Source: Escherichia coli (GTDB lineage: Bacteria; Pseudomonadota; Gammaproteobacteria; Enterobacterales; Enterobacteriaceae). From it: a stretch of DNA of 64,000 bases. The notes below the pieces were generated by a model that was given only the letters and a program-made list of their open reading frames with translations, was not told where the DNA came from and searched no databases. The stretch lies in the NCBI RefSeq assembly GCF_003991155.1, contig NZ_CP031293.1. One strand, 5' to 3'. How positions within the stretch are numbered: position 1 is the stretch's first letter; each line of letters begins with the position of its first letter. Both the position numbers and the translations under genes were made by a program. Shown piece after piece: positions 24,337-37,506 of this stretch.

Positions 24337-25152
24337 CTAAAGAGTGTAGCGGATTTTAACGTGCTTATTTACAGGATAATATCTGTCACCTAATTCCTGC
24401 ACTCTATTAGATATCCATTCATTTAATCGCGCATCATCTCTGTATGTTTTTACGTCCAGAACAGAGAGCAATAACCTCACCAGTGATTCAGGAAAAACAG
24501 GGTAGATATTTTTTAAGTGTAATAATAATCCATGCGCAAGCGCCTGCTTAATGGGCGCGTCGGTCTCCGGGATAGACGACATTTCGCGAAGCCATTTTTC
24601 CACATGCATACACTCTTTCCCTTTAGGGAAAAGTCTCAGCAAAGGCATATGGTGTTCAAGAAGAATACATTTGCAATCTGTTCGCACTGAATCGATAAAC
24701 TGCACTAATTTCTTAAGCCCGGTAAAGCGTCCAGCCTGCACATTTGCTTTAATATCAAGAAACGCATCATCCTGGTCATATACCCAAACTGTCCCTTTTT
24801 GATTTTCAAGTATGCGAAAAACAAACTTAACCGGGTGATCAGGGTAATCCATCCAGTCATAAAATCCAGGGAAATCATTAAACTGCACATTTATGGTGAG
24901 TGCGTTATCGTCTGACCACTCACAGTCTCGCACGGCTGCCATAAGATGAATGAGTTTGTCATCATCGACTAAATCATCACGACAATCATAAGGATAATCA
25001 TAATATTGTTTAATCAAAACCTTGAATATATCGACACAGGAAACCAGAGAGCTTTTGATATCCTCCGGTAACTGGTTGTTTTTAACCGTATTAAGTATGC
25101 TTTGTTGCGTATATGGCATCAAATTATTGTGTGGAGCTTTTAATGATATCAT
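24337..25152 (-). CDS. yahL: protein of unknown function, A+T-rich gene
   Basis: 271-aa ORF MISLKAPHNNLMPYTQQSILNTVKNNQLPEDIK; no recognisable domain; length matches YahL. Confidence 0.7.
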   Translation of the reverse strand: MISLKAPHNNLMPYTQQSILNTVKNNQLPEDIKSSLVSCVDIFKVLIKQYYDYPYDCRDDLVDDDKLIHLMAAVRDCEWSDDNALTINVQFNDFPGFYDWMDYPDHPVKFVFRILENQKGTVWVYDQDDAFLDIKANVQAGRFTGLKKLVQFIDSVRTDCKCILLEHHMPLLRLFPKGKECMHVEKWLREMSSIPETDAPIKQALAHGLLLHLKNIYPVFPESLVRLLLSVLDVKTYRDDARLNEWISNRVQELGDRYYPVNKHVKIRYTL

Positions 25153-26820: not shown

Positions 26821-28203
26821 TCAACCTGCCACACTCCCCCACACCAGTTGCCCTTTATGGAACGTTGCGGTTCTCGGCGAGATACGCGCCACCGCCTCGG
26901 CGGAACAGGAGGCGTCCACCAGCACAAAGCTGGCGTCATCCTGCGCTTTGGGCCACACGCGCTCGCCTTTTTCGTTGAGCGGCAATACATCGCCAGTGGC
27001 TAAAAACAGCGAACGGGACAAATTCTGTTCGTTAGGACGAATATAGAGCTGCGCGTAGAGATTGGCTTTTTCCAGCATGTCGCCCAGGCCGTAGGGAGAC
27101 CAGTGGTCGATAACGCTGTCGGTGCCGGTCATGACTTGTACGCCTTTGTCGTGCAACTGTTTGAGCGGCATATGCAGCGTGCCAATCGGCACCGTCGAGG
27201 CGATAGAAATTTGCTGCGCCGCCATCCGGTGCGCCAGTTCATCTACCTGTTGCTCATTGAGCGTTGCCAACGCAAAGGCGTGACTGATGGTCAGCTTGCC
27301 CTTCAGCTGTGGCGTTTTCTCTACCGTTTCAACCATATAATTGATGGCTGCCACGCCCGACGGAGTGGTTTCGTGCAGGTGAATATCGACGCCTTTGTCG
27401 TAGTCCAGCGCAATCTGGAACATGGTGTCGAGGGATTTTTCCATCGCGCCATCGACACTGGTCGGGTCCAGTCCGCCGACGTAATGCGCACCCGCCTGCA
27501 TCGCTTCGCGCATTAAGGGTTCTGATTTCGACAGCAGCAAACCGTGCTGCGGGAAGGCGACAATTTCACACTCGAAGCCCGCCTGACGTCGCGCCAGAAC
27601 CGCCTGCAAATTTTGCAGATTTTTCAGGCCGGAAACCGGTTCGATATTGCAGTGGCTGCGGGCAATGGTGGTGCCTTTCGACTGCAATAAATCGATCAGT
27701 TTTTCCGCCCGCTCCTGCGTGTACGGTTGTAACTCCGGCAGCATTTTCTGCTCGAGTTTGATCATGTCCTGGATGGTGGTGCCTGCCGGGCGATTGAGCG
27801 AGCGCCACGGCCCGCCGTAGAAAGTTTTGTCGAGATGAATATGCATGTCGCGGGTGGTGGGCAGCATCAACTTACCGCCTGCGTCATAGTGCGGCAGCGT
27901 GGCCTCCGGATGCTGCTTGTTCTCGCGCAGGGCAACAATTTTGCCGTTCTGAATCTCTACGGTCTGGTGCGCCGTGCGGGTCTGCACCGCCACACCGTTT
28001 TCGTAGTCAAAACCGGTTTCCAGCAGCACGTTGTCGAGATAGTAGTGCGGGTCAGTGATTTTCATGGTGTTATTTGCCTCGCAGTGGGTTGTGCCAGAGA
28101 CTGCCGCATGGGCGAGCGGCACTGAGGTACCAAACAGCGCGGCGGCGGTAACCATCTTACCGCTCTGGCTCAGAAATTCACGGCGGCTATTGTTTTCTTT
28201 CAT
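26821..28203 (-). CDS. yahJ: amidohydrolase-family deaminase with twin-arginine (Tat) signal peptide
   Basis: 460 aa; N-terminus MKENNSRREFLSQSGKMVTAAALFGTSVPLAHA has an SRRxFL Tat motif; metal-dependent hydrolase fold (HIHLD). Confidence 0.85.
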   Translation of the reverse strand: MKENNSRREFLSQSGKMVTAAALFGTSVPLAHAAVSGTTHCEANNTMKITDPHYYLDNVLLETGFDYENGVAVQTRTAHQTVEIQNGKIVALRENKQHPEATLPHYDAGGKLMLPTTRDMHIHLDKTFYGGPWRSLNRPAGTTIQDMIKLEQKMLPELQPYTQERAEKLIDLLQSKGTTIARSHCNIEPVSGLKNLQNLQAVLARRQAGFECEIVAFPQHGLLLSKSEPLMREAMQAGAHYVGGLDPTSVDGAMEKSLDTMFQIALDYDKGVDIHLHETTPSGVAAINYMVETVEKTPQLKGKLTISHAFALATLNEQQVDELAHRMAAQQISIASTVPIGTLHMPLKQLHDKGVQVMTGTDSVIDHWSPYGLGDMLEKANLYAQLYIRPNEQNLSRSLFLATGDVLPLNEKGERVWPKAQDDASFVLVDASCSAEAVARISPRTATFHKGQLVWGSVAG

Positions 28204-28212
28204 CTTACGTCC

Positions 28213-29163
28213 TTAGGTTTTAATAATATGGGTGCCCGTTTCGCCGCGTAGCGCCGCAGGCAGGCATTCCGGCGTGGTGATAATCACTTTTTTACCGCCC
28301 TGCTCCAGGAACGTCAGGCTGGCGATGATTTTTGGCAACATGCTGCCGGGTGGGAAATGCCCTTCCTGCATATAGCGGGTCATGGTGGCAATATCCACCC
28401 GATCCAGCACCTGCTGCTGCGGTTTGCCAAAGTGAATACACACTTTTTCGACGCCAGTGGTGATCACCAGAATGTCGGCGTGAATTTCACGGGCCAATAG
28501 CGCGGTAGAGAGATCTTTGTCGATAACCGCGTCCACGCTTTGATAATCTCCCGCTTCGGTGCGCACCACAGGAATTCCACCGCCGCCCGCGCCAATCACC
28601 ACAAAGCCTTGTTGGATCAGCGCCTTAATGGCAGGTGCTTCGACAATACGTTTCGGTTCCGGCGAGGCGACCACGCGGCGATAGCCCCGTCCGGCATCTT
28701 CAACAAAACGCCAGTCAGGGTTTGCCTTTTGTAGTTCGTCACGCTGGCTTTCACTAAAGAATGCGCCGATGGGCTTGGTGGGATGGGCAAACCCCGGATC
28801 GTTTTTATCCACTTCCACCTGAGTCACCACGGTGACGGCTTTTTTCTCGCCGTGACGCGCCAGCCGGTTATTCAGCGCCTGCTGGATCAGATAGCCAATG
28901 CCGCCTTGCGTATCCGCCACACAGTTCGCCAGCGGCGTTAAGGGCAGCCCTTCGCGCTCGTGGGCAATCTCCGCGCGGCGTAAATCCAAACCGACCTGCG
29001 GTCCGTTGCCGTGGGTCAGCACAATGTCGTAATCGGAAGCCAGCATTTCCAGCACCGTATCGGCGACGGCCTTCACCGCCTCCGCCTGATGCTCAATCGA
29101 CTGGCTGGCGTTATCTTTGATAATGCTGTTGCCACCAATGGCAACGACCACAAGTTCTTTCAT
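28213..29163 (-). CDS. yahI: carbamate kinase-like protein
   Basis: ORF 28213..29280; ATG at 29163 gives MKELVVVAIGGNSII (amino-acid kinase fold, 316 aa). Confidence 0.82.
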   Translation of the reverse strand: MKELVVVAIGGNSIIKDNASQSIEHQAEAVKAVADTVLEMLASDYDIVLTHGNGPQVGLDLRRAEIAHEREGLPLTPLANCVADTQGGIGYLIQQALNNRLARHGEKKAVTVVTQVEVDKNDPGFAHPTKPIGAFFSESQRDELQKANPDWRFVEDAGRGYRRVVASPEPKRIVEAPAIKALIQQGFVVIGAGGGGIPVVRTEAGDYQSVDAVIDKDLSTALLAREIHADILVITTGVEKVCIHFGKPQQQVLDRVDIATMTRYMQEGHFPPGSMLPKIIASLTFLEQGGKKVIITTPECLPAALRGETGTHIIKT

Positions 29164-29258
29164 GTTGTTATGTCCGCTACAGAGGGTGATGGGGTTATGA
29201 GAGTGAGGTTGCCCTTCTCCCCAAAAGGGAGAAGGTATCGTAAGGTGCGGTTGGAGGG

Positions 29259-30677
29259 TCAGACGCCGTAACGTTCGCACCAGCCAAGAATGGCTTTCTC
29301 GAAGCAGGCGAAGGGTGGATGCACAATGCCCGCGCCAATCATGCCGACGCCCGCATCTTTATGGGCAATGGCGGTGTTGATCACCGGCAGAATGCCGCTG
29401 CTACCCACGCGGGTGATGTCGATTGCCGACGGCACGCCCATAAAACCGAGCAGCGGAATGGTCACGTTGGGGTTTTCGCCGAGAGTGATTTCGCGCATCT
29501 GACGGGAGAAATCGATAGCCTCTTCCACCGTACCGCCCACCAGCGCGACGATTGCAGGCGCGGTCGCCATAGCAAATCCGCCAATGCCGTAGGTTTCGGT
29601 GATGGCGCTGTCGCCGATATCCAGCCCCGAATCTTCCGGCTTATAACCGGCAAACATCGGGCCGATCACCTGCTGCGCCGGACCGGTAAACCATTGCCCC
29701 GGTAATCCGCTGACCCGCAGACCGAACTCGACGCCGTTACGCGCCATGGTGGTCACCACAGTGCTGTATTCGATGCCGTGCGCCGCATCCATCGCCGCTT
29801 TACACATCGCCATCCACGTCGGGCCGGAGAAGTAGTCACTGCTGGCGACAAACTCAAACACTTCGCGCTGTTGCTCGACGGAGTAGCCCGCCTGAATAAT
29901 CCCCGGCGTCAGCGCCTGAATCAGCAGCGTCGTCCCGGCGTTATTGCGGTTATGGCACTCATCGCCCATATGCAGCGCCTGCGCCAGCATTAAGCGCAGA
30001 TCGATTTCGCCGATAATTTTCATCGCGTCGCGCAGCATGGGTCCCTGCACATCGCGCATCCAGTTGAGGCGGTCGATCACGCTCTGGTCATTAGCGCCCA
30101 TACGCAAAATCTTCGCCATCTGCTCGCTCATGTTGGTATAAGCGATGTTGCCGTAGGTTTTGTTTTTCACGATGTGCATAAACATCGAGGCCGAGGTGAC
30201 GCCCGCCATCGATCCCACACAGTCGTGCTCGTGGCACGGCGAGAAAGTGATCTCACCGGAAGCCGCCAGTTCAGCCGCCTCGTCGAGATCTTTCGCCAGC
30301 CCTTCGAACACCAGCGCCCCGGTGACCGCGCCTTTCATCGCGCCGCACATTTTTTCCCAGGTGACCGGCGGCCCGGCGTGAAGAATGGTTTTCGGCGTCA
30401 TGCCCGGCACCACGTTAATCGCCTGATCAAAACCAATCAGCACCGGATGTGACTGAATAATGCGTTCCAGCGCCTGCTGGTTAGCGGCGGCGATTTTGTC
30501 TGCCAGCGGCGAATCGGCAATGTTGTCCAGCGCCTGCACCACCTGCATATTGCCCTGCCCCGGCGGCGTCCAGTCGAGTTGAGTCACTTCTACATGCTGC
30601 TTTTTCAAATCATCGCTAAACATGGCGATGCCGACGTTAATAACGTTCAACGGTTGGCTAAACAGTGACGGGCTCAT
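29259..30677 (-). CDS. yahG: DUF1116 protein (YlbE paralogue)
   Basis: 472-aa ORF; start ATG shares one nucleotide with the yahF stop (TGATG), indicating translational coupling. Confidence 0.8.
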   Translation of the reverse strand: MSPSLFSQPLNVINVGIAMFSDDLKKQHVEVTQLDWTPPGQGNMQVVQALDNIADSPLADKIAAANQQALERIIQSHPVLIGFDQAINVVPGMTPKTILHAGPPVTWEKMCGAMKGAVTGALVFEGLAKDLDEAAELAASGEITFSPCHEHDCVGSMAGVTSASMFMHIVKNKTYGNIAYTNMSEQMAKILRMGANDQSVIDRLNWMRDVQGPMLRDAMKIIGEIDLRLMLAQALHMGDECHNRNNAGTTLLIQALTPGIIQAGYSVEQQREVFEFVASSDYFSGPTWMAMCKAAMDAAHGIEYSTVVTTMARNGVEFGLRVSGLPGQWFTGPAQQVIGPMFAGYKPEDSGLDIGDSAITETYGIGGFAMATAPAIVALVGGTVEEAIDFSRQMREITLGENPNVTIPLLGFMGVPSAIDITRVGSSGILPVINTAIAHKDAGVGMIGAGIVHPPFACFEKAILGWCERYGV

Positions 30678-32224
30678 CAGGCTTCCTCCCCTTTGCAGAT
30701 AAATTCACGCGCCAGCAATCCGGTATTGGTGCTGCTGCTCGCCAGAATCACTCCGGCATCAAGCAGCATCTGGCTTTGTTGTTCTAATGATGGCGTATCA
30801 AGATCGGTACCCAGCACATAGGCGAGAATGATCAACTCGCGTCCTTCGGCAGCGGCGATCGCTTTCGCCTCTTTGATCGCCTCGATGGTGGAACCGACCG
30901 GATCTTCATGCGATCCAAACCCGAGCACAAAATCCATCACGATCACCGCCACTTCTGGATCGCGCGCTTCTTCGATCAACCGGCTGATGCGGTTGGTCGG
31001 GTCAATCATTGGATGCGGCTTGCCGTTGGTAAAATCGTCATCGCCAAAGTCGAGGAAGGTATGTTTGACGCAGCGGTTGATATCTTTCAGGCGGAATTCA
31101 GGATCGGGCTGGATGTTGCTGTAGACATCGCCGTGTTTTTCCATCACCGCGAACATGGTTTCGTCACACAGCGTACCGCCGCAGAACAGGCCACGAATGT
31201 ATTTCTGTTGTGGCTTCAGGCGAGCGCGCACGTCAGCAATCAATGGCTGGTTCAGGGTATGCAGATCGAGATGTTCCTGTTTCACGCCGGAGAGCATTAC
31301 CGCTTTCAGCGCCGCTTCTTTGCTGCCGCGAGCAAACTGTAGCCCCTGCTCATCCACTGGCGTTTCGCCACGACCGAGGAAGCAGACCACCACCGGCTTG
31401 CGGCAGGCACGTGCGCGTTCCAGCACTTTGCGGGCCACCGCAGGCGCAGGCGGTTTGGAGATAAGCACAATGATTTCAGTTTGCGGATCGTTTTCCAGCA
31501 TCCCGATGGCATCGAGCATCATCAGACCGCCGATTTTCTCGCTCAGGTCGCGCCCGCCGGTGCCAATCAGTTGCGAAACGCCGCCGCAAAATTCATGGAT
31601 ACGGACGCTCAGTTCCTGGCTGCCGGTGCCAGATGCGCCAACAATGCCGATGTTGCCGCGACGCACGGCGTTACCAAAGCAGAGCGCCGCGCCGTTGATA
31701 ATCGCCGTACCGCAGTCTGGCCCCATCATCAGCAGCCCTTTTTCGTGGGCCAACTGTTTGAGCGCCAGTTCATCTTCAACTGAGACGTTATCGGAAAACA
31801 GCATCACGTTAAGATCGTTTTGCAGCGCCTGACGCGCTTCGCGAGCGGCAAACAGACCGTTGACCGAAATCACCGCCAGGTTACTTTCCGGGATATGCTT
31901 TTTGGCGCTGGCAATAGTGGCATAGCGTGCTTCATGTGAACCAGTTTGAGCTTTGGTGTTGAACAGTTCTTCAATCTCCACCAGCAACTGCTCGTTGTCT
32001 GCGCCCGCTTTGCCGTTGATGACAATCATCAGGTCGCCGTTTTTCGCCTGCTCCAGTTCCGGCGTCAGCAGCCCTAAATTCTTCAGCACGCCTTTGTTCA
32101 TTTCGGTCGCCATCGCCACAAATGCCTGCTCGACGCCGTCGAGTTTATTTGCACGCGTGGAGATAGACATCAGCGAGACAGAATCAAAATAGGTATTCGG
32201 TTTAATGACTATTTTAACTGACAT
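30677..32224 (-). CDS. yahF: FdrA-like acyl-CoA synthetase (NDP-forming) / succinyl-CoA-ligase-alpha-like protein
   Basis: 515 aa; CoA-binding glycine-rich segments (GIVGASGTG, ISKPPAP); overlaps yahE by 11 nt. Confidence 0.85.
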   Translation of the reverse strand: MSVKIVIKPNTYFDSVSLMSISTRANKLDGVEQAFVAMATEMNKGVLKNLGLLTPELEQAKNGDLMIVINGKAGADNEQLLVEIEELFNTKAQTGSHEARYATIASAKKHIPESNLAVISVNGLFAAREARQALQNDLNVMLFSDNVSVEDELALKQLAHEKGLLMMGPDCGTAIINGAALCFGNAVRRGNIGIVGASGTGSQELSVRIHEFCGGVSQLIGTGGRDLSEKIGGLMMLDAIGMLENDPQTEIIVLISKPPAPAVARKVLERARACRKPVVVCFLGRGETPVDEQGLQFARGSKEAALKAVMLSGVKQEHLDLHTLNQPLIADVRARLKPQQKYIRGLFCGGTLCDETMFAVMEKHGDVYSNIQPDPEFRLKDINRCVKHTFLDFGDDDFTNGKPHPMIDPTNRISRLIEEARDPEVAVIVMDFVLGFGSHEDPVGSTIEAIKEAKAIAAAEGRELIILAYVLGTDLDTPSLEQQSQMLLDAGVILASSSTNTGLLAREFICKGEEA

Positions 32225-33077
32225 AATTCCCTCCGTAGGTTTGGCTCAGCGCACAACCATCGGCCATGCCATACAGCATGTCGCAGCCGGAACTGGAGCC
32301 AATATGTTTAATTTTTTCTATTGCCTGAGTTGCGTTCCCAGGGATGTCATAAATAATGTTATGAATAAAACGATGAATATTTTCCCGGCAGCGTTGTTGT
32401 AATGCGGCTTCCAGCGTTATGGCACTTAATAACGTGGTATTATTTCTGCCGCGTTGCAGACCGAGATAAAATTCCTCTTTGTATTTTTCCGCCGGATGTC
32501 CGGAAATAAATAAAATAAGCGCCAGACCTGTTAAATAATCGTCGGCTGATGGCGTAAGGCCAATCCCTAAGCCCATCATACTGGCGACTGCTGAGGCGAT
32601 ATTTTGTTTATCGTTTACGGCCTGAATAACTGCCCGTCGTTTAATATGTAATTCTTTATTTAACGCCTGATAAAACGGATTATCGCCGCAATAATTAAAC
32701 AGGGTTTCATTTTCCCCCAGGTGCTGATGAATAATGTCATGCCACTGTTGCCAGACGATAAGGTGAAAATTCACAGCGGTCATTTGCAAGGTTGGGGACA
32801 GCCAACGCTGGCAATGACTCATCTCTATATGAAGATGTTGACCAACCGTAATGCCTTGATCGTCAAACTGAACCTTATCACCATGATGGAACAGACCATT
32901 AAAGTGAGTGAGTGCCAACCGACAACTGTTTGGCGCATTGTCGTACTCTTCACAAAGCAGCGTCAGCAACTGCTGGCGGGCCGGAAGTGCGATATTTACC
33001 GCTCTGGCAAAGACCTGTTCAACCTGTCCTTGCCCCCGCTGCGCCAGAAAATCCGCATCCGCAGTTAGCGCCCACAC
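32214..33077 (-). CDS. yahE: DUF2877 protein (YlbF paralogue)
   Basis: 287-aa ORF between yahD and yahF; no catalytic motif recognised. Confidence 0.75.
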   Translation of the reverse strand: MWALTADADFLAQRGQGQVEQVFARAVNIALPARQQLLTLLCEEYDNAPNSCRLALTHFNGLFHHGDKVQFDDQGITVGQHLHIEMSHCQRWLSPTLQMTAVNFHLIVWQQWHDIIHQHLGENETLFNYCGDNPFYQALNKELHIKRRAVIQAVNDKQNIASAVASMMGLGIGLTPSADDYLTGLALILFISGHPAEKYKEEFYLGLQRGRNNTTLLSAITLEAALQQRCRENIHRFIHNIIYDIPGNATQAIEKIKHIGSSSGCDMLYGMADGCALSQTYGGNYVS

Positions 33078-33116
33078 ACACCGTCTTTCTGGTGTGTTGA
33101 TAGCAAGCCTCCCGGT

Positions 33117-33722
33117 TTATGCGCCTGCGGCAATCAGTAACTGCGCAATCTCTTCAAAGCCTCGTTCCCGCGCCAGTTCCAGCGGTGTTTTGCCATATTT
33201 ATCCGTCAGATGCGGGCTGGCACCGTGTTCCAGCAATAACTGGACAATCGCCTGCTGTTTAATCCCGCCATCATTAAGCACAATCGCTTCCAGTAGCGGC
33301 GTCCAGCCTACATGGTTGGTCTGGTTAACGTTAATCTCCGTATGCGCCAAAAGCTCTTTTACAATACTTAAATGGCCTTTTTCACAGGCAGGCGTCAGGC
33401 CGACACCGCCAAAACGGGTTACGCAATTAAGATCGGGTTTAGCCGGTAAAATAATTCGTAGTAGCGTTAAATCATCGTTCAGACAGCTAATTAAAAAAGG
33501 ATTTAAACAGGTATGATCTTGCTTATTAATATCCGCTCCAGCGTCAATTAATGCCTGAACGCAAGCATATTGCTGATATAAACTTGCCAGCGTAATTGCC
33601 GTTTTCCCCTGACGATCGCAGGTATTAATATCGACACCCAGCGCAAGGCAGGTTTTTACTTTATCGATATCACCCTGTTGCGCAGCCAATAAATAGTCGG
33701 CAGGTAGATTTTTTATAGTCAT
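33117..33722 (-). CDS. yahD: ankyrin-repeat protein
   Basis: 201 aa; repeated ankyrin signatures (G-TPL--A---GH---V--LL--GA), e.g. GWTPLLEAIVLNDGGIKQQAIVQLLLEHGA. Confidence 0.85.
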   Translation of the reverse strand: MTIKNLPADYLLAAQQGDIDKVKTCLALGVDINTCDRQGKTAITLASLYQQYACVQALIDAGADINKQDHTCLNPFLISCLNDDLTLLRIILPAKPDLNCVTRFGGVGLTPACEKGHLSIVKELLAHTEINVNQTNHVGWTPLLEAIVLNDGGIKQQAIVQLLLEHGASPHLTDKYGKTPLELARERGFEEIAQLLIAAGA

Positions 33723-33979
33723 TCACATTCCCCTGGTTTTTGTGGCTGTTTTCGATGAATTGAGAATAGCAACGATAATCTGATAAAAGAACCCGCTTAA
33801 ATTTAATTCGCCGTATTTCGCCTTTTTGTTGAATGATGTTCAACAATCTTTTCGCAGTGTGCGGTAGTGCAATATTTGTTTCTTTGACCCGATACCCTTT
33901 CACTCAATCAGGTTTTATTTCTCTATAGTCTGCACATGTAAGAGTAGCTTTCGTCCATGTCTAACCAGAGGGGAACAAG

Positions 33980-34477
33980 ATGAACGGACTCACGGCAACG
34001 GGTGTCACCGTCGGTATTTGTGCAGGGCTTTGGCAGTTAGTGTCTTCACATGTCGGGCTCTCTCAGGGATGGGAATTATTAGGAACCATTGGCTTCGTCG
34101 CCTTTTGCAGTTTTTATGCCGCAGGCGGCGGTAAATCGGGGTTTATCAGAAGCCTGGCGGTTAATTATTCCGGGATGGTGTGGGCGTTTTTCGCCGCGCT
34201 GGCTGCCGGTTGGCTGGCCTCGGTGAGTGGATTGTCCACGTTCTGGGCGAGCGTGATTATGACTGTACCCTTCTCGGCGATGGTGGTCTGGCAAGGGCGT
34301 TTCTGGTTACTGTCTTTTATTCCTGGAGGCTTTCTCGGCATGACGCTATTTTTTGCCAGCGGGATGAACTGGACGGTGACATTACTGGGTTTTCTGGCGG
34401 GTAACTGCGTGGGGATAATTTCAGAATATGGCGGACAAAAATTAAGCGAAGCGACGACTAAACGCGACGGGTATTAA
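33980..34477 (+). CDS. yahC: inner-membrane protein of unknown function
   Basis: 165-aa hydrophobic ORF divergent from yahD. Confidence 0.75.
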   Translation: MNGLTATGVTVGICAGLWQLVSSHVGLSQGWELLGTIGFVAFCSFYAAGGGKSGFIRSLAVNYSGMVWAFFAALAAGWLASVSGLSTFWASVIMTVPFSAMVVWQGRFWLLSFIPGGFLGMTLFFASGMNWTVTLLGFLAGNCVGIISEYGGQKLSEATTKRDGY

Positions 34478-34568: not shown

Positions 34569-35501
34569 ATGAACTCAATTTTTACCGAAGAGAATCTGTT
34601 GGCATTTACTACCGCTGCGCGTTTTGGCAGTTTCAGTAAAGCCGCAGAAGAGTTGGGTTTAACCACTTCCGCCATTAGCTACACCATCAAGCGAATGGAA
34701 ACAGGGCTGGATGTGGTGCTGTTCACTCGCAGTACCCGAAGCATTGAGTTAACGGAGTCCGGGCGTTATTTTTTCCGCAAAGCTACCGACCTGCTGAATG
34801 ATTTTCACGCCATCAAACGCAGCATCGATACTATTTCGCAGGGTATAGAAGCACGGGTGCGCATTTGTATTAACCAACTGCTTTATACGCCCAAACACAC
34901 CGCACGCTTATTACAGGTACTGAAAAAGCAGTTTCCAACCTGCCAGATTACCGTGACGACCGAAGTGTATAACGGCGTCTGGGATGCGATTATTAATAAT
35001 CAGGCGAATATTGCTATCGGCGCGCCCGACACACTGCTGGACGGCGGCGGCATTGATTACACGGAGATTGGCGCGATTCGCTGGGCTTTTGCTATCGCCC
35101 CGGATCACCCGTTAGCCTTTGTGCCGGAACCCATCGCCGAAAGCCAGCTGCGTCTCTATCCTAATATCATGGTGGAAGACACCGCGCATACGATTAATAA
35201 AAAAGTGGGCTGGTTGCTGCATGGGCAGGAGTCGATTCTGGTGCCAGATTTCAACACCAAATGTCAGTGCCAGATTTTAGGCGAAGGAATTGGTTTTTTG
35301 CCGGATTACATGGTCCGTGAGGCGATGGCGCAATCCCTGCTGGTTACCCGACAAATCCATAATCCGCGCCAGGATTCACGCATGTTACTGGCGACCCAGC
35401 ACTCTGCCACCGGTCAGGTGACGCAGTGGATTAAAAAACAATTTGCGCCAAATGGCATATTAACGGGGATCTATCAGGATTTACTGCATCGGGAGAATTA
35501 A
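34569..35501 (+). CDS. yahB: LysR-family transcriptional regulator
   Basis: 310 aa; N-terminal LysR HTH (FTTAARFGSFSKAAEELGLTTSAISYTIKRME). Confidence 0.88.
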   Translation: MNSIFTEENLLAFTTAARFGSFSKAAEELGLTTSAISYTIKRMETGLDVVLFTRSTRSIELTESGRYFFRKATDLLNDFHAIKRSIDTISQGIEARVRICINQLLYTPKHTARLLQVLKKQFPTCQITVTTEVYNGVWDAIINNQANIAIGAPDTLLDGGGIDYTEIGAIRWAFAIAPDHPLAFVPEPIAESQLRLYPNIMVEDTAHTINKKVGWLLHGQESILVPDFNTKCQCQILGEGIGFLPDYMVREAMAQSLLVTRQIHNPRQDSRMLLATQHSATGQVTQWIKKQFAPNGILTGIYQDLLHREN

Positions 35502-35542: not shown

Positions 35543-36631
35543 TCAACCACCGGCTTTCATTACCCATTCAGAGATAAATTTATTACCCGGTACTGGCGGA
35601 GAGTACAAATAGCCCTGCAAAAAGTGAACGCCTTTGCCGATCATTAAATCCGCCTGCTCCTGGGTTTCTACCCCTTCCGCCACGATACTCAGACCAGGCT
35701 TACGCGCCAGTTCGACAATATTGTCCACAATATGACCGGATATTTCGTCCACGCTCGCCATTTGCACAAATGACTTATCGATCTTAATAAAATCGACCGG
35801 GAACGCCTGCAAGTAACGATAGGTTGCATAACCCGTACCAAAGTCATCCAGCGCAAAGGTAATGTTGTGCTGATGAAGGCTGTCAAATATCGCTCTGGCT
35901 TCTGGCGTTACCGGAATAGGGTTACGTTCCGTTAACTCGAGAACCAGTTTGATTTTATCGTTACCTAATTTCTTAACCAGGTTCAGACACTCTTTTTCAA
36001 ATCCTGCGGCCAAAAAACATCCTGCCGAGACGTTGATGCCAATATGGAAATTATCCGGCAGCAAATGTTTTACTGGCATCAGAATATCCGCAGTCTGTTT
36101 CATCAGCTGGCGAGTCATTATGACGATAAGACCAGATGACTCCGCCAGAGGAATAAACTGATCCGGTGGGATAATTCCCGTTTGCGGATGTTCCCAGCGA
36201 ACAAGCACCTCACAGCCCGTCAGTACCCCAGTCTGCGCGCAGAAAACCGGTTGGATCCACGGTTTAAATTCATGGTTTTCCAACGCCAGACTGATGGCTT
36301 CAGGCGTGACGATATGGTGATAGTGATTATCATTAATATATTTGTGACTATTATTACCCGTGGCGGATATGATCTCCGGATTGTACTGAAAGAAAATATC
36401 CCGCCAGAAAGTAATATCGCTCTGAATCCCCAGTTTCTCAAAGAGCTGTTTCTTTTGATGTGAAATGGTCTTTGCACTGCGATTTCTGTACTGTGATATT
36501 TCTGTTACAGACATTCCCTGCATCAGCAGCTTGAGTAGCAGTCGTTCTTTCTCGGATACGCTACCAGGCAATGACAAATGAACCGTTGTACCGAACTCTT
36601 GCAGAAAAACACGAAAATCACATGAATTCAT
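35543..36631 (-). CDS. pdeL: c-di-GMP phosphodiesterase with LuxR-type HTH and EAL domain
   Basis: ORF 35543..36637; ATG at 36631 gives MNSCDFRVFLQEF (362 aa); EAL-domain motifs LVLELTE and DDFGTGYA. Confidence 0.9.
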   Translation of the reverse strand: MNSCDFRVFLQEFGTTVHLSLPGSVSEKERLLLKLLMQGMSVTEISQYRNRSAKTISHQKKQLFEKLGIQSDITFWRDIFFQYNPEIISATGNNSHKYINDNHYHHIVTPEAISLALENHEFKPWIQPVFCAQTGVLTGCEVLVRWEHPQTGIIPPDQFIPLAESSGLIVIMTRQLMKQTADILMPVKHLLPDNFHIGINVSAGCFLAAGFEKECLNLVKKLGNDKIKLVLELTERNPIPVTPEARAIFDSLHQHNITFALDDFGTGYATYRYLQAFPVDFIKIDKSFVQMASVDEISGHIVDNIVELARKPGLSIVAEGVETQEQADLMIGKGVHFLQGYLYSPPVPGNKFISEWVMKAGG

Positions 36632-37461
36632 GAACACACCTTTTATCTTTTATCGCTGTTCAGTATGAGTGATTACCTGTGGATTCCTGAGCACACATAA
36701 GGGGTAACCATAAACATTAGCGATGCCATACGTATAACATCCCACATCACTATCAAGAAGATTATCTTTACCTCTGATGCTCGCTCAAAAACAGTTACGC
36801 TAAATACCTTAAAAAGGTAATCACAAGTCAAACTCAGGAGATAATCACGCAAGAATGCAATATTAAAATTCAGATACTCATTTTTGGTAATAAAGAAGTA
36901 GTTGGACTATTTCGATATTTATAATTTCCCACTACGTATTGACGCCCATTCATGAGTAAAGGCGCATTATATGAATTTAACAATCCAGATCAACTGAAAA
37001 TACCTCAACCTCATAAACACATAGCGTCAACATTCAATGACATAATGAGTAAAGATGTTGGTTATGCATACACGTCATTACTCTATGCCTATCCCTTAAC
37101 AACCTGCTTTTTAAGACTGAATCCATTCAGCAATAGATAGCCAACATTATAACAATGACAATAAAAACAATATTTAAAACAATCAATAAAATATCAGGCA
37201 CAGACAATTAAACCTTAAACAACAAACGGTTACATTGATTTTAGTTGATTTGCGCTACGCGTTCCCCATGAATAAAGCGTCATTTCAAATTAGCACCAAT
37301 ATTTACATTAAATAAGACTAAGCTTATTGAACATTCACAACAGTCCAAACGTAGGTTTTGGGCTTCAATAGTTCTTTTCTTTTTTATTATCTGTTGCCTG
37401 GCAATCATCAATCGATACTAAGGGCTTAACTGTACAGATATAACGTATCAAGAGGTAAGAG

Positions 37462-37494
37462 AAACCGCGCCATATGCAGACATGGCGCGGTTTT
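37462..37494 (-). terminator. probable intrinsic terminator downstream of betT
   Basis: Perfect 12-bp inverted repeat AAACCGCGCCAT/ATGGCGCGGTTT around an 8-nt loop; on the minus strand the stem is followed by UUUCUCUU; 13 bp past the betT stop. Confidence 0.55.
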
Positions 37495-37506
37495 ATGCAA
37501 AAACAA

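Follow-up and report, generated by a model that had tools for sequence, protein, structure and literature searches.

YahD of Escherichia coli, an ankyrin-repeat protein probably dedicated to YahEFG-type gene clusters

The DNA considered here is a stretch of 64,000 nucleotides from Escherichia coli (contig NZ_CP031293.1 of assembly GCF_003991155.1), called the window below, and its subject is yahD, a gene for a small ankyrin-repeat (ANK) protein that stands first in the gene order yahDEFGIJ (Table 1). RefSeq labels the open reading frame "yahD: ankyrin repeat domain-containing protein" and the locus is 100% identical to several complete E. coli genomes; the gene and its ANK annotation are already known. 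The yahDEFGIJ genes count among the dense blocks of uncharacterised E. coli genes (PMC11551758), and a full-text literature search returned no study of YahD function and none linking ankyrin proteins to FdrA, DUF1116 or DUF2877 systems. An earlier note on this DNA, made from the sequence alone, had described an ANK-only protein of about 200 amino acids in first place, 39 bp upstream of yahE. Both points hold, with a protein of 201 residues and a spacer of exactly that length, although the note left the minus strand unsaid. Among 5426 complete E. coli genomes, yahD is present in 5058 (at a coverage of at least 80%) and yahFG in 5039. The ratio of nonsynonymous to synonymous divergence (dN/dS) of yahD against five other species is 0.07-0.14, which indicates purifying selection, and the sequence CAGGGG(A/C)ATG at its start is conserved in Kluyvera and Citrobacter farmeri. 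The gene is clearly genuine and not a chance open reading frame.

Table 1. Coordinates of yahD, its neighbours and the associated sequence elements in the window (aa, amino acids; nt, nucleotides).
Feature	Position	Strand	Description
yahJ	26821..28203	-	Amidohydrolase, 460 aa; Pfam Amidohydro_3; NCBIfam PRK06846, 715 bits
yahI	28213..29163	-	Carbamate kinase family, 316 aa; NCBIfam PRK12352, 648 bits (cut-off 266); Pfam AA_kinase
yahG	29259..30677	-	AllG family (DUF1116), 472 aa; Pfam PF06545, E 5e-89
yahF	30677..32224	-	FdrA/AllF-like, CoA_binding and Ligase_CoA, 515 aa; NCBIfam FdrA subfamily, 489 bits (cut-off 433)
yahE	32214..33077	-	AllH family (DUF2877), 287 aa; Pfam PF11392, E 2e-28; GTG start at 33077
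Spacer hairpin	33076..33097	-	ACACACC-N8-GGTGTGT; 3' arm takes in the first two bases of the yahE GTG
yahD-yahE spacer	33078..33116	-	39 nt; GGAGG at 33108..33112, directly after the yahD stop
yahD	33117..33722	-	ATG to TAA, 201 aa, six ankyrin repeats, without signal peptide or further domain
Shine-Dalgarno-like AGGGGAA	33728..33734	-	3' end 5 nt ahead of the yahD start codon; identified by reading the upstream sequence
Dyad	33826..33846	.	TTGTTGAA-N5-TTCAACAA; perfect 8-N5-8 with T-N11-A core, between the divergent genes yahC and yahD, 124 nt ahead of the yahD ATG
yahC	33980..34477	+	DUF1097 membrane protein, divergent from yahD; in the conserved cassette of five genera (Pfam, synteny)
yahB	34569..35501	+	LysR-family regulator (Pfam HTH_1, LysR_substrate); adjoins the cassette throughout Enterobacterales

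The Pfam scan of YahD returned ankyrin families and no other domain, with Ank_4 at 94.2 bits (cut-off 22.7), Ank_2 at 94.2 (27.3) and Ank at 81.1 (21.1; E-values 4e-27 to 3e-23), and the NCBIfam scan assigned YahD to no family. In an AlphaFold2 model computed with the family alignment as input, twelve helices form six pairs (predicted local distance difference test, pLDDT, 95; predicted template modelling score, pTM, 0.88); the model is a solenoid of helix-turn-helix repeats and its best fold matches are ANK structures. The N-terminus, MTIKNLPADYLLAAQQGD, is helical from residue 3 and, because it is hydrophilic, YahD is predicted to be cytoplasmic.

The occurrence of yahD beyond E. coli was read from 80 loci in 80 species that were retrieved by YahG alone, with a seven-sequence YahG alignment as the query. 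Each open reading frame at these loci was compared with the E. coli Yah proteins and with profiles made from the matches. A YahD-family ANK gene lies inside the cluster at 68 of the 80 YahG-type loci, encoding an ANK-only protein at 47 of them and an ANK protein joined to tetratricopeptide repeats (ANK+TPR) at 20, and the taxa concerned are Enterobacterales, Bacillales, Shewanella/Vibrio, Pasteurellaceae, Burkholderiales and some Actinomycetota. The ANK-only gene sits directly upstream of yahE at 35 loci (mostly Enterobacterales, together with Lysinibacillus, Paenibacillus terrigena and a Propionibacteriaceae metagenome-assembled genome) and directly upstream of yahF at 12 (Enterobacter, Leclercia, Lelliottia, Avibacterium, Sutterella and an Actinomycetaceae metagenome-assembled genome), and a Streptomyces locus (L071) has a distant ANK-only copy about 5 kb off on the other strand. 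The ANK+TPR gene, of about 400 codons, is directly upstream of yahI or overlaps it at 11 loci, all of them Bacillales, where it stays adjacent to the carbamate kinase gene even when the two are 2-5 kb from yahEFG; it precedes yahE or yahF at five loci and stands elsewhere in the cluster at four. The 12 loci without an ANK gene comprise eight Actinomycetota, one Paenibacillus, one Paenibacillus with a 100-residue remnant and two truncated contigs.

Every family match aligns with YahD from end to end, so that one module of about 195 residues can be recognised throughout. This module is fused to about 200 residues of TPR (Pfam) in most loci of Bacillales, Shewanella/Vibrio and Burkholderiales (for example, L047 11428-12621, L063 6959-8227 and L081 5371-7440). 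Closer to E. coli, the YahD orthologues of Kluyvera, Raoultella, Citrobacter, Pseudocitrobacter and other genera are 71-83% identical and all 201 residues long, and the eight-gene block, with yahB-yahC divergent from yahD-E-F-G-I-J, is intact in Kluyvera, Raoultella and C. farmeri. The ANK gene thus shifts its place within the cluster yet is kept in Proteobacteria as well as in Bacillota and Actinomycetota. Owing to shared ancestry, the 80 loci do not count as independent cases, but seven or more different arrangements, spread over three phyla, have kept the gene. As ANK genes are rare in bacterial genomes, this linkage with the yah cluster is not a matter of chance. The earlier note had suggested comparing the distribution of yahD with that of yahEFG, and the answer is strongly positive and extends far beyond the enterobacteria, while within E. 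coli the genes are present or absent together. We regard a functional link of YahD to the YahEFG-type system as very likely.

Among the AllG-family contexts checked, the linkage is specific to one type of cluster. An ANK gene is absent from the K-12 allF-allG-allH-allK cluster, from one F-G fusion cluster and from a different operon holding a YahG-like gene of 40% identity (the distant AllG cluster), and the gene table of the tkt1 island of extraintestinal pathogenic E. coli (ExPEC) likewise lists none (PMC3349570; PMC12928451). When 5.8 billion proteins were searched with the profile, most matches were from Enterobacterales and the others were long generic ANK proteins outside yah clusters, which added nothing to the reverse comparison, from ANK genes to neighbouring yahFG. 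Judged by these distributions, YahD is probably the E. coli member of a distinct ANK family dedicated to YahEFG-type clusters. The linkage across phyla, the ANK+TPR variants and the cluster-specific residues described below appear to be new, and taken together they outline an AllFGH-type system that includes an ANK protein.

Several loci depart from the E. coli arrangement in their other genes. At 12 loci yahD is kept and yahE is lost, and YahE is therefore not the sole partner of YahD. No complete locus lacks both genes, against about 1.5 expected under independence, a difference that is not significant. The Enterobacter, Leclercia and Lelliottia loci (L019, L021-L027 and L045) have no yahE even by profile search, although AllH, the namesake of the family to which YahE belongs, is needed for the function of AllFGH in vivo; in these loci a GC-rich hairpin, GGCCAGCC-N6-GGCTGGCC, separates yahD from yahF, which is the next gene. 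Avibacterium gallinarum (L076 6883-17781) has two LysR genes side by side with two FdrA/AllG-like gene pairs, and the ANK gene accompanies the first pair only.

Transport and deamination genes vary as well. At 36 Enterobacterales loci, yahG and yahI are separated by a gene whose product is a membrane protein of about 516 residues (for example, L013 11528-13084); the Prokaryotic Genome Annotation Pipeline (PGAP) names this protein "xanthine permease" and it has no Pfam or NCBIfam match. This permease and yahC are mutually exclusive, as the 36 permease loci have no yahC and the five loci without the permease (in Escherichia, Pseudocitrobacter, Kluyvera and Raoultella) all have it. In one Firmicute locus (L088 7958-17423), the gene of a PucR-type regulator faces D-E-F-G, and behind D-E-F-G come genes for an NCS1 permease, a carbamate kinase and a deaminase of the CDA type. 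Here the PucR regulator, a permease of the cytosine/purine/allantoin type and a small deaminase replace YahB, YahC and YahJ, which hints at an amino-substituted nucleobase as the substrate.

The residues that define the family were taken from eleven representatives, no two of which reach 70% identity. The invariant positions lie in repeat 4 (R103, F104, G105, P111, E114, K115 and G116) and repeat 5 (N136, G139, W140, L143, E145, L149, G152 and G153), within the motifs tRFGG..l.P..EKGh and VNh.N..GW.pLlEAiiL.dGG, and repeat 5 carries a six-residue insertion. Four family-defining motifs, RFG[GA], EKG[HYF], GW..[LI].E[AS] and L.[DN]GG, all occur in YahD and in 68 of 71 family sequences; the Streptomyces copy, distant and outside the cluster, is among the three exceptions. 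The residues were laid on the ANK consensus DxxGxTPLHLAAxxGH, with the numbering used in the design of designed ankyrin repeat proteins (DARPins). On this scale R103, F104, E114 and K115 fall at positions 2, 3, 13 and 14 and W140 at position 5, which we take to be the randomised, target-contacting positions of DARPins (Binz/Pluckthun), and E145 falls at position 10 on the groove-facing helix. ANK look-alikes outside the clusters, namely a Deinococcus plasmid protein of 43% identity and the long proteins P0271-P0276, keep RFGG and GW..L.EA and lack EKG. Because these out-of-cluster proteins are without EKG, E114 and K115 are the cluster-specific invariants.

The reading we favour, though only by a modest lean, is that YahD serves as a protein-binding accessory subunit of the YahF-YahG(-YahE)/YahI carbamoyl-transfer pathway. 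YahEFG-type clusters, the paralogues of AllFGH, are linked to a carbamate kinase, a deaminase or amidohydrolase and nucleobase-type permeases. Their probable chemistry is the degradation of a nucleobase-derived ureido compound, in which phosphorolysis would yield carbamoyl phosphate and this in turn ATP, NH3 and CO2. The concave groove of repeats 4-5, with E114 and K115, would dock onto a Yah protein, the YahF-YahG core being the most likely target, and the bound YahD might make the enzyme more stable, help to assemble it, regulate it or hold it close to the carbamate kinase. As ANK and ANK+TPR are protein-binding folds, the idea of a scaffold or chaperone put forward in the earlier note is a reasonable inference. 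In a comparison of the mirror-tree style, YahD distances track those of YahF best (partial r 0.55-0.74), followed by YahG, and do not track YahE or YahI; the analysis is crude, as pairwise distances depend on one another and allow no statement of significance.

Several observations weigh against this assignment. The signals for a partner conflict, since adjacency points to YahE, YahF or YahI according to lineage and the distance correlation points to YahF. An AlphaFold2 model of YahD-(G4S)6-YahF showed no confident docking, with a pLDDT of 82 and a pTM of 0.56, the value expected of two undocked bodies; as it came from a shallow paired alignment (14 sequences), as a single chain without YahG, YahE or YahI and with no predicted aligned error, it is not evidence against contact. 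A Rosetta-stone search of ten extended AllG-family proteins found no ANK fusion to E, F, G or I; seven were F-G fusions or fragments, one was a GntR fusion, one a DNA-methylase fusion and one had no identifiable extra domain. The groove residues other than E114 and K115 (RFGG and GW..L.EA) may belong to a wider scaffold type and not to a partner-specific site. Eight Actinomycetota clusters and one Paenibacillus cluster do without an ANK gene, so there is no universal requirement for it, and AllFGH, the paralogue that has been characterised, functions with no ANK protein (PMC11326118). Finally, the E. coli cassette has lost the permease found in other genera and may be partly decayed.

A bolder version of the accessory-subunit reading, which we offer tentatively and think rather unlikely, makes YahD an integral fourth component of a new carbamoyltransferase system for a nucleobase-derived ureido compound. 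Its groove would dock on YahF-YahG, the ANK+TPR form would tether the carbamate kinase so that labile carbamoyl phosphate is passed on directly, and YahD may replace the AllH-like subunit where yahE has been lost. If this were true, we know of no earlier case in which an ankyrin-repeat protein was shown to belong, as a dedicated subunit found across phyla, to a catabolic enzyme complex of bacteria. Confirmation of the accessory-subunit proposal would extend the roles of bacterial ankyrins from effectors to core metabolism. In either form, what had been an annotation oddity can now be put to the test, as an ANK accessory subunit in which particular residues are singled out for mutation.

The leading alternative, improbable in our estimate, is that the groove of repeats 4-5 binds a small molecule (a nucleobase, a nucleotide or carbamoyl phosphate) and that YahD is a substrate-presenting or sensing subunit. 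The invariant groove set of F104, W140, E114, E145, R103 and K115 is aromatic, acidic and basic in character, and the clusters contain nucleobase-type permeases (NCS1 in Paenibacillus and L088, and the PGAP "xanthine permease"). Among natural proteins in the Protein Data Bank (PDB), the RNase L ANK domain is one of the better matches to YahD. That domain binds 2',5'-oligoadenylate (2-5A) through an aromatic residue at position 5 and a glutamate at position 10 of the repeat, and W140 and E145 occupy the same repeat positions. However, BLASTP, run with a manually entered RNase L sequence, places YahD repeats 4-6 on RNase L repeats 5-7 and not on the 2-5A-binding repeats 2-4. As the alignment misses the binding repeats, the resemblance is positional and not homologous. 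ANK repeats rarely bind small molecules, and the recurrent TPR fusion points to protein partners.

A second alternative, which we hold to be slightly less probable still, would make YahD a regulatory protein that acts on transcription, for example as a co-factor or anti-activator of the adjacent LysR regulator, YahB, through which it would adjust expression of the operon by direct binding. The gene is promoter-proximal, and yahB adjoins it in essentially all Enterobacterales loci and lies directly upstream and co-directional in Avibacterium and Sutterella. The divergent region between yahC and yahD contains the conserved LysR-type dyad listed in Table 1. A motif of the form ATTGTTGAA-N5-TTCAAYAAT occurs upstream of yahD in about 15 loci of about nine genera, with a variable centre, and the dyad is a plausible candidate operator for the adjacent regulator, with its assignment to YahB suggested by position. 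Against a YahB partner, in Bacillales, Shewanella and Burkholderiales the ANK gene persists at loci that have no YahB-like LysR gene next to it and one Firmicute locus uses a PucR-type regulator instead, while YahD distances have no residual correlation with those of YahB (partial r -0.11).

That yahD heads an operon is argued only indirectly, from the gene order, the missing terminator, the conserved upstream dyad and the description of yahDEFGIJ as a possible operon (PMC4765031). The scan for terminator-like sites between yahD and yahE found none, and the promoter scan upstream of yahD found no sigma-70 consensus. The 39-nt spacing between the two genes is identical in Kluyvera, Raoultella and C. 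farmeri, and yahD and yahE are in the same reading frame with no further stop codon in between. The hairpin in this spacer, which reaches into the yahE start codon, may couple the translation of yahE to that of yahD. A spacer hairpin folds in 15 of 15 species, each with its own stem sequence (z -0.3 to -4.5); RNAalifold on the yahD-yahE spacer returned a different, weak helix of five pairs and no single common register, and the support for the hairpin is thus limited to the folds of the individual species. The GGAGG that directly follows the yahD stop is conserved.

Other features of the neighbourhood were recorded alongside these. The nearest named relatives of yahJ are cytosine deaminases, and the NCBIfam models for cytosine deaminase match it below their cut-offs. 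The gap between yahG and yahI (29164-29258) measures 95 nt here, and in K-12 REP23/"yahH" lies between these two genes (PMC4765031, PMC11551758). Elsewhere in the window, the pdeL-betT intergenic region (36600-37500) is strongly AT-rich, with a G+C content of 0.34-0.35, and yahL (24337-25152) has a G+C content of 0.39 against 0.51 for the whole window.

The third alternative, very improbable in light of the comparative data, treats yahD as a passenger, an ANK gene of foreign and possibly eukaryote-like origin that lies beside the metabolic genes and plays no part in what they do. ANK proteins are indeed rare in E. coli, and a PSI-BLAST search with the A26.8 VHH query retrieved YahD and ArpA as ankyrin-repeat E. 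coli matches (PMC7033237). The cassette is mobile, and the G+C content at third codon positions (GC3) is 0.43 for yahD compared with 0.64-0.73 for yahF-J. However, yahE has a similarly low GC3 of 0.46, and the lower GC3 of yahD and yahE is also seen in Pseudocitrobacter, Kluyvera, Raoultella, Citrobacter, Serratia, Buttiauxella and Atlantibacter; the gap is smaller in Enterobacter and Leclercia and is missing in Zophobihabitans and Providencia stuartii. Because it recurs across most Enterobacterales genera checked, low GC3 is a trait of yahD and yahE together and no scar of a separate acquisition of yahD. The codon-usage comparison proposed in the earlier note thus gives no mark of such an event, and its suggestion that yahD could be a remnant of horizontal acquisition is not supported, the gene being ancient in this type of cluster and under purifying selection. 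The signal of recent transfer lies in yahFGIJ and not in yahD, the linkage is kept across phyla in several gene orders, and the closest structural relatives (PDB entries 5D66 and 3HRA) are bacterial. The passenger reading is largely refuted already by these comparisons.

The transfer signal itself emerges from the comparison with Pseudocitrobacter (L009), in which yahJ-I-G-F have 93-97% nucleotide identity and a synonymous divergence (dS) of about 0.2, whereas yahE, D, C and B have 63-77% and a dS of 1.2-1.7. The break falls at the yahF/yahE junction, where the two genes overlap, and marks a recombination breakpoint inside the cassette near 32200-32230. As identity drops sharply at this junction, the recent exchange with Pseudocitrobacter covered yahFGIJ and not yahDE. 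In E. albertii identity is uniform, at 91-97% from yahJ to yahD. The flanks of the cassette are unrelated in Kluyvera, Raoultella and C. farmeri, which indicates that it moves as a unit, and a second, complete cassette, with a YahD homologue of 71% identity and the permease kept, resides on E. coli IncF conjugative plasmids between IS1 and IS100. Read from these alignments, the whole cassette is both mobile and mosaic.

On the plasmid pCys-1 (NZ_CP041299.1; L094 9684-18117), a LysR gene faces the order ANK-DUF2877-FdrA-DUF1116-permease-carbamate kinase, and a set of the tkt1-island type (carbamate kinase, cytosine permease and LysR) adjoins this cassette. Many of the IncF plasmids with this cassette come from avian or urinary isolates, and a YahD homologue of 60-80% identity is present in 71 plasmid records. 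Hosts whose cassette is intact and still has the permease, including ExPEC strains with such IncF plasmids, are better suited to experiments than E. coli K-12.

The weakest alternative, scarcely credible to us, has YahD acting in phage defence or on cellular machinery that has nothing to do with the operon (for example, proteins of cell division or of the envelope): a UTI89 overexpression fragment (361,550-364,162, with yahD, yahE and part of yahF, corresponding to about 31600-33800 of the window) was enriched 17-fold in filamentous cells and ANK-containing PADLOC models match YahD, but the fragment was not resolved to a single gene (PMC6206680), overexpression artefacts are common, the PADLOC and NCBIfam matches cover only part of each profile and reflect a general ANK likeness, with NCBIfam scores far below cut-off (for example, 71 bits where 500 are required), and the neighbourhood is consistently metabolic.

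Known ankyrin systems offer only partial likenesses to YahD. The ANK effectors of type IV secretion in Legionella and Coxiella were considered and rejected, as the best NCBIfam match, AnkG, scores 71.5 bits against a cut-off of 500 and the rest are also far below theirs, and so were the anti-phage ANK proteins of PADLOC, whose matches are partial and generic (positions 236-364 of 392 in PDC-M72A and 740-832 of 880 in "Ankyrin") while the neighbours of yahD are metabolic. The closest example of an ANK protein that assists a bacterial enzyme is AnkB of the Pseudomonas aeruginosa katB-ankB operon, a small ANK-only protein whose gene shares a transcript with that of an enzyme and which the enzyme reportedly requires for full activity. 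AnkB is described as membrane-anchored or periplasmic and is paired with a catalase. A periplasmic catalase helper of this type was rejected for YahD, whose N-terminus is hydrophilic and which has no catalase gene within 12 kb on either side. Assembly chaperones of the gankyrin/Nas6 type and DARPins are ANK-only and bind their partners by the concave groove; they are eukaryotic or artificial and have only generic ANK similarity to YahD, which makes them an analogy for the mode of binding and not members of the family. ArpA is a much larger multidomain protein, and its locus is unrelated and lies outside the window. Besides YahD it is the one protein with ankyrin repeats in E. coli K-12, and its gene, like yahD, is chromosomal (PMC7033237).

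In structure, the closest relatives of YahD are two ANK proteins from structural genomics of about 200 residues with six repeats and no assigned function. The best match to the model is 5D66 (ABAYE2397 of Acinetobacter baumannii), with a template modelling (TM) score of 0.90, a root-mean-square deviation of 1.8 A and 42% identity, followed by 3HRA (EF0377 of Enterococcus faecalis), with a TM score of 0.87 and 36% identity. Both were flagged in PDB sequence searches with YahD, which are dominated by DARPins and eukaryotic ankyrins. The Deinococcus ANK protein, of a similarity comparable to that of 5D66, lies outside any yahFG context.

For the enzymatic core, the system to compare is the allantoin pathway of E. 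coli. AllF-AllG-AllH was shown in 2024 to be the oxamic transcarbamylase, each of its genes being needed in vivo, and that study mentions neither the yah paralogues nor any ankyrin protein (PMC11326118). The core of the yah cluster has been interpretable only since this assignment. YahF, YahG and YahE are paralogues of AllF, AllG and AllH, and YahI is a carbamate kinase like AllK, so that the same chemistry is likely, namely ureido phosphorolysis to carbamoyl phosphate followed by ATP formation. YahD is no paralogue of a known subunit, as Pfam and NCBIfam matched it to ANK families only and gave no homology to AllF, AllG or AllH. The two systems differ in gene order, which is F-G-H in the all cluster and (D)-E-F-G in the yah cluster, and in the length of YahG, whose 472 residues include an N-terminal extension of about 57 compared with about 419 residues for AllG-type proteins. 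Relative to the all cluster, the yah cassette adds an amidohydrolase and a LysR regulator, and the ANK family serves as a marker that separates YahG-type from allFGH-type systems.

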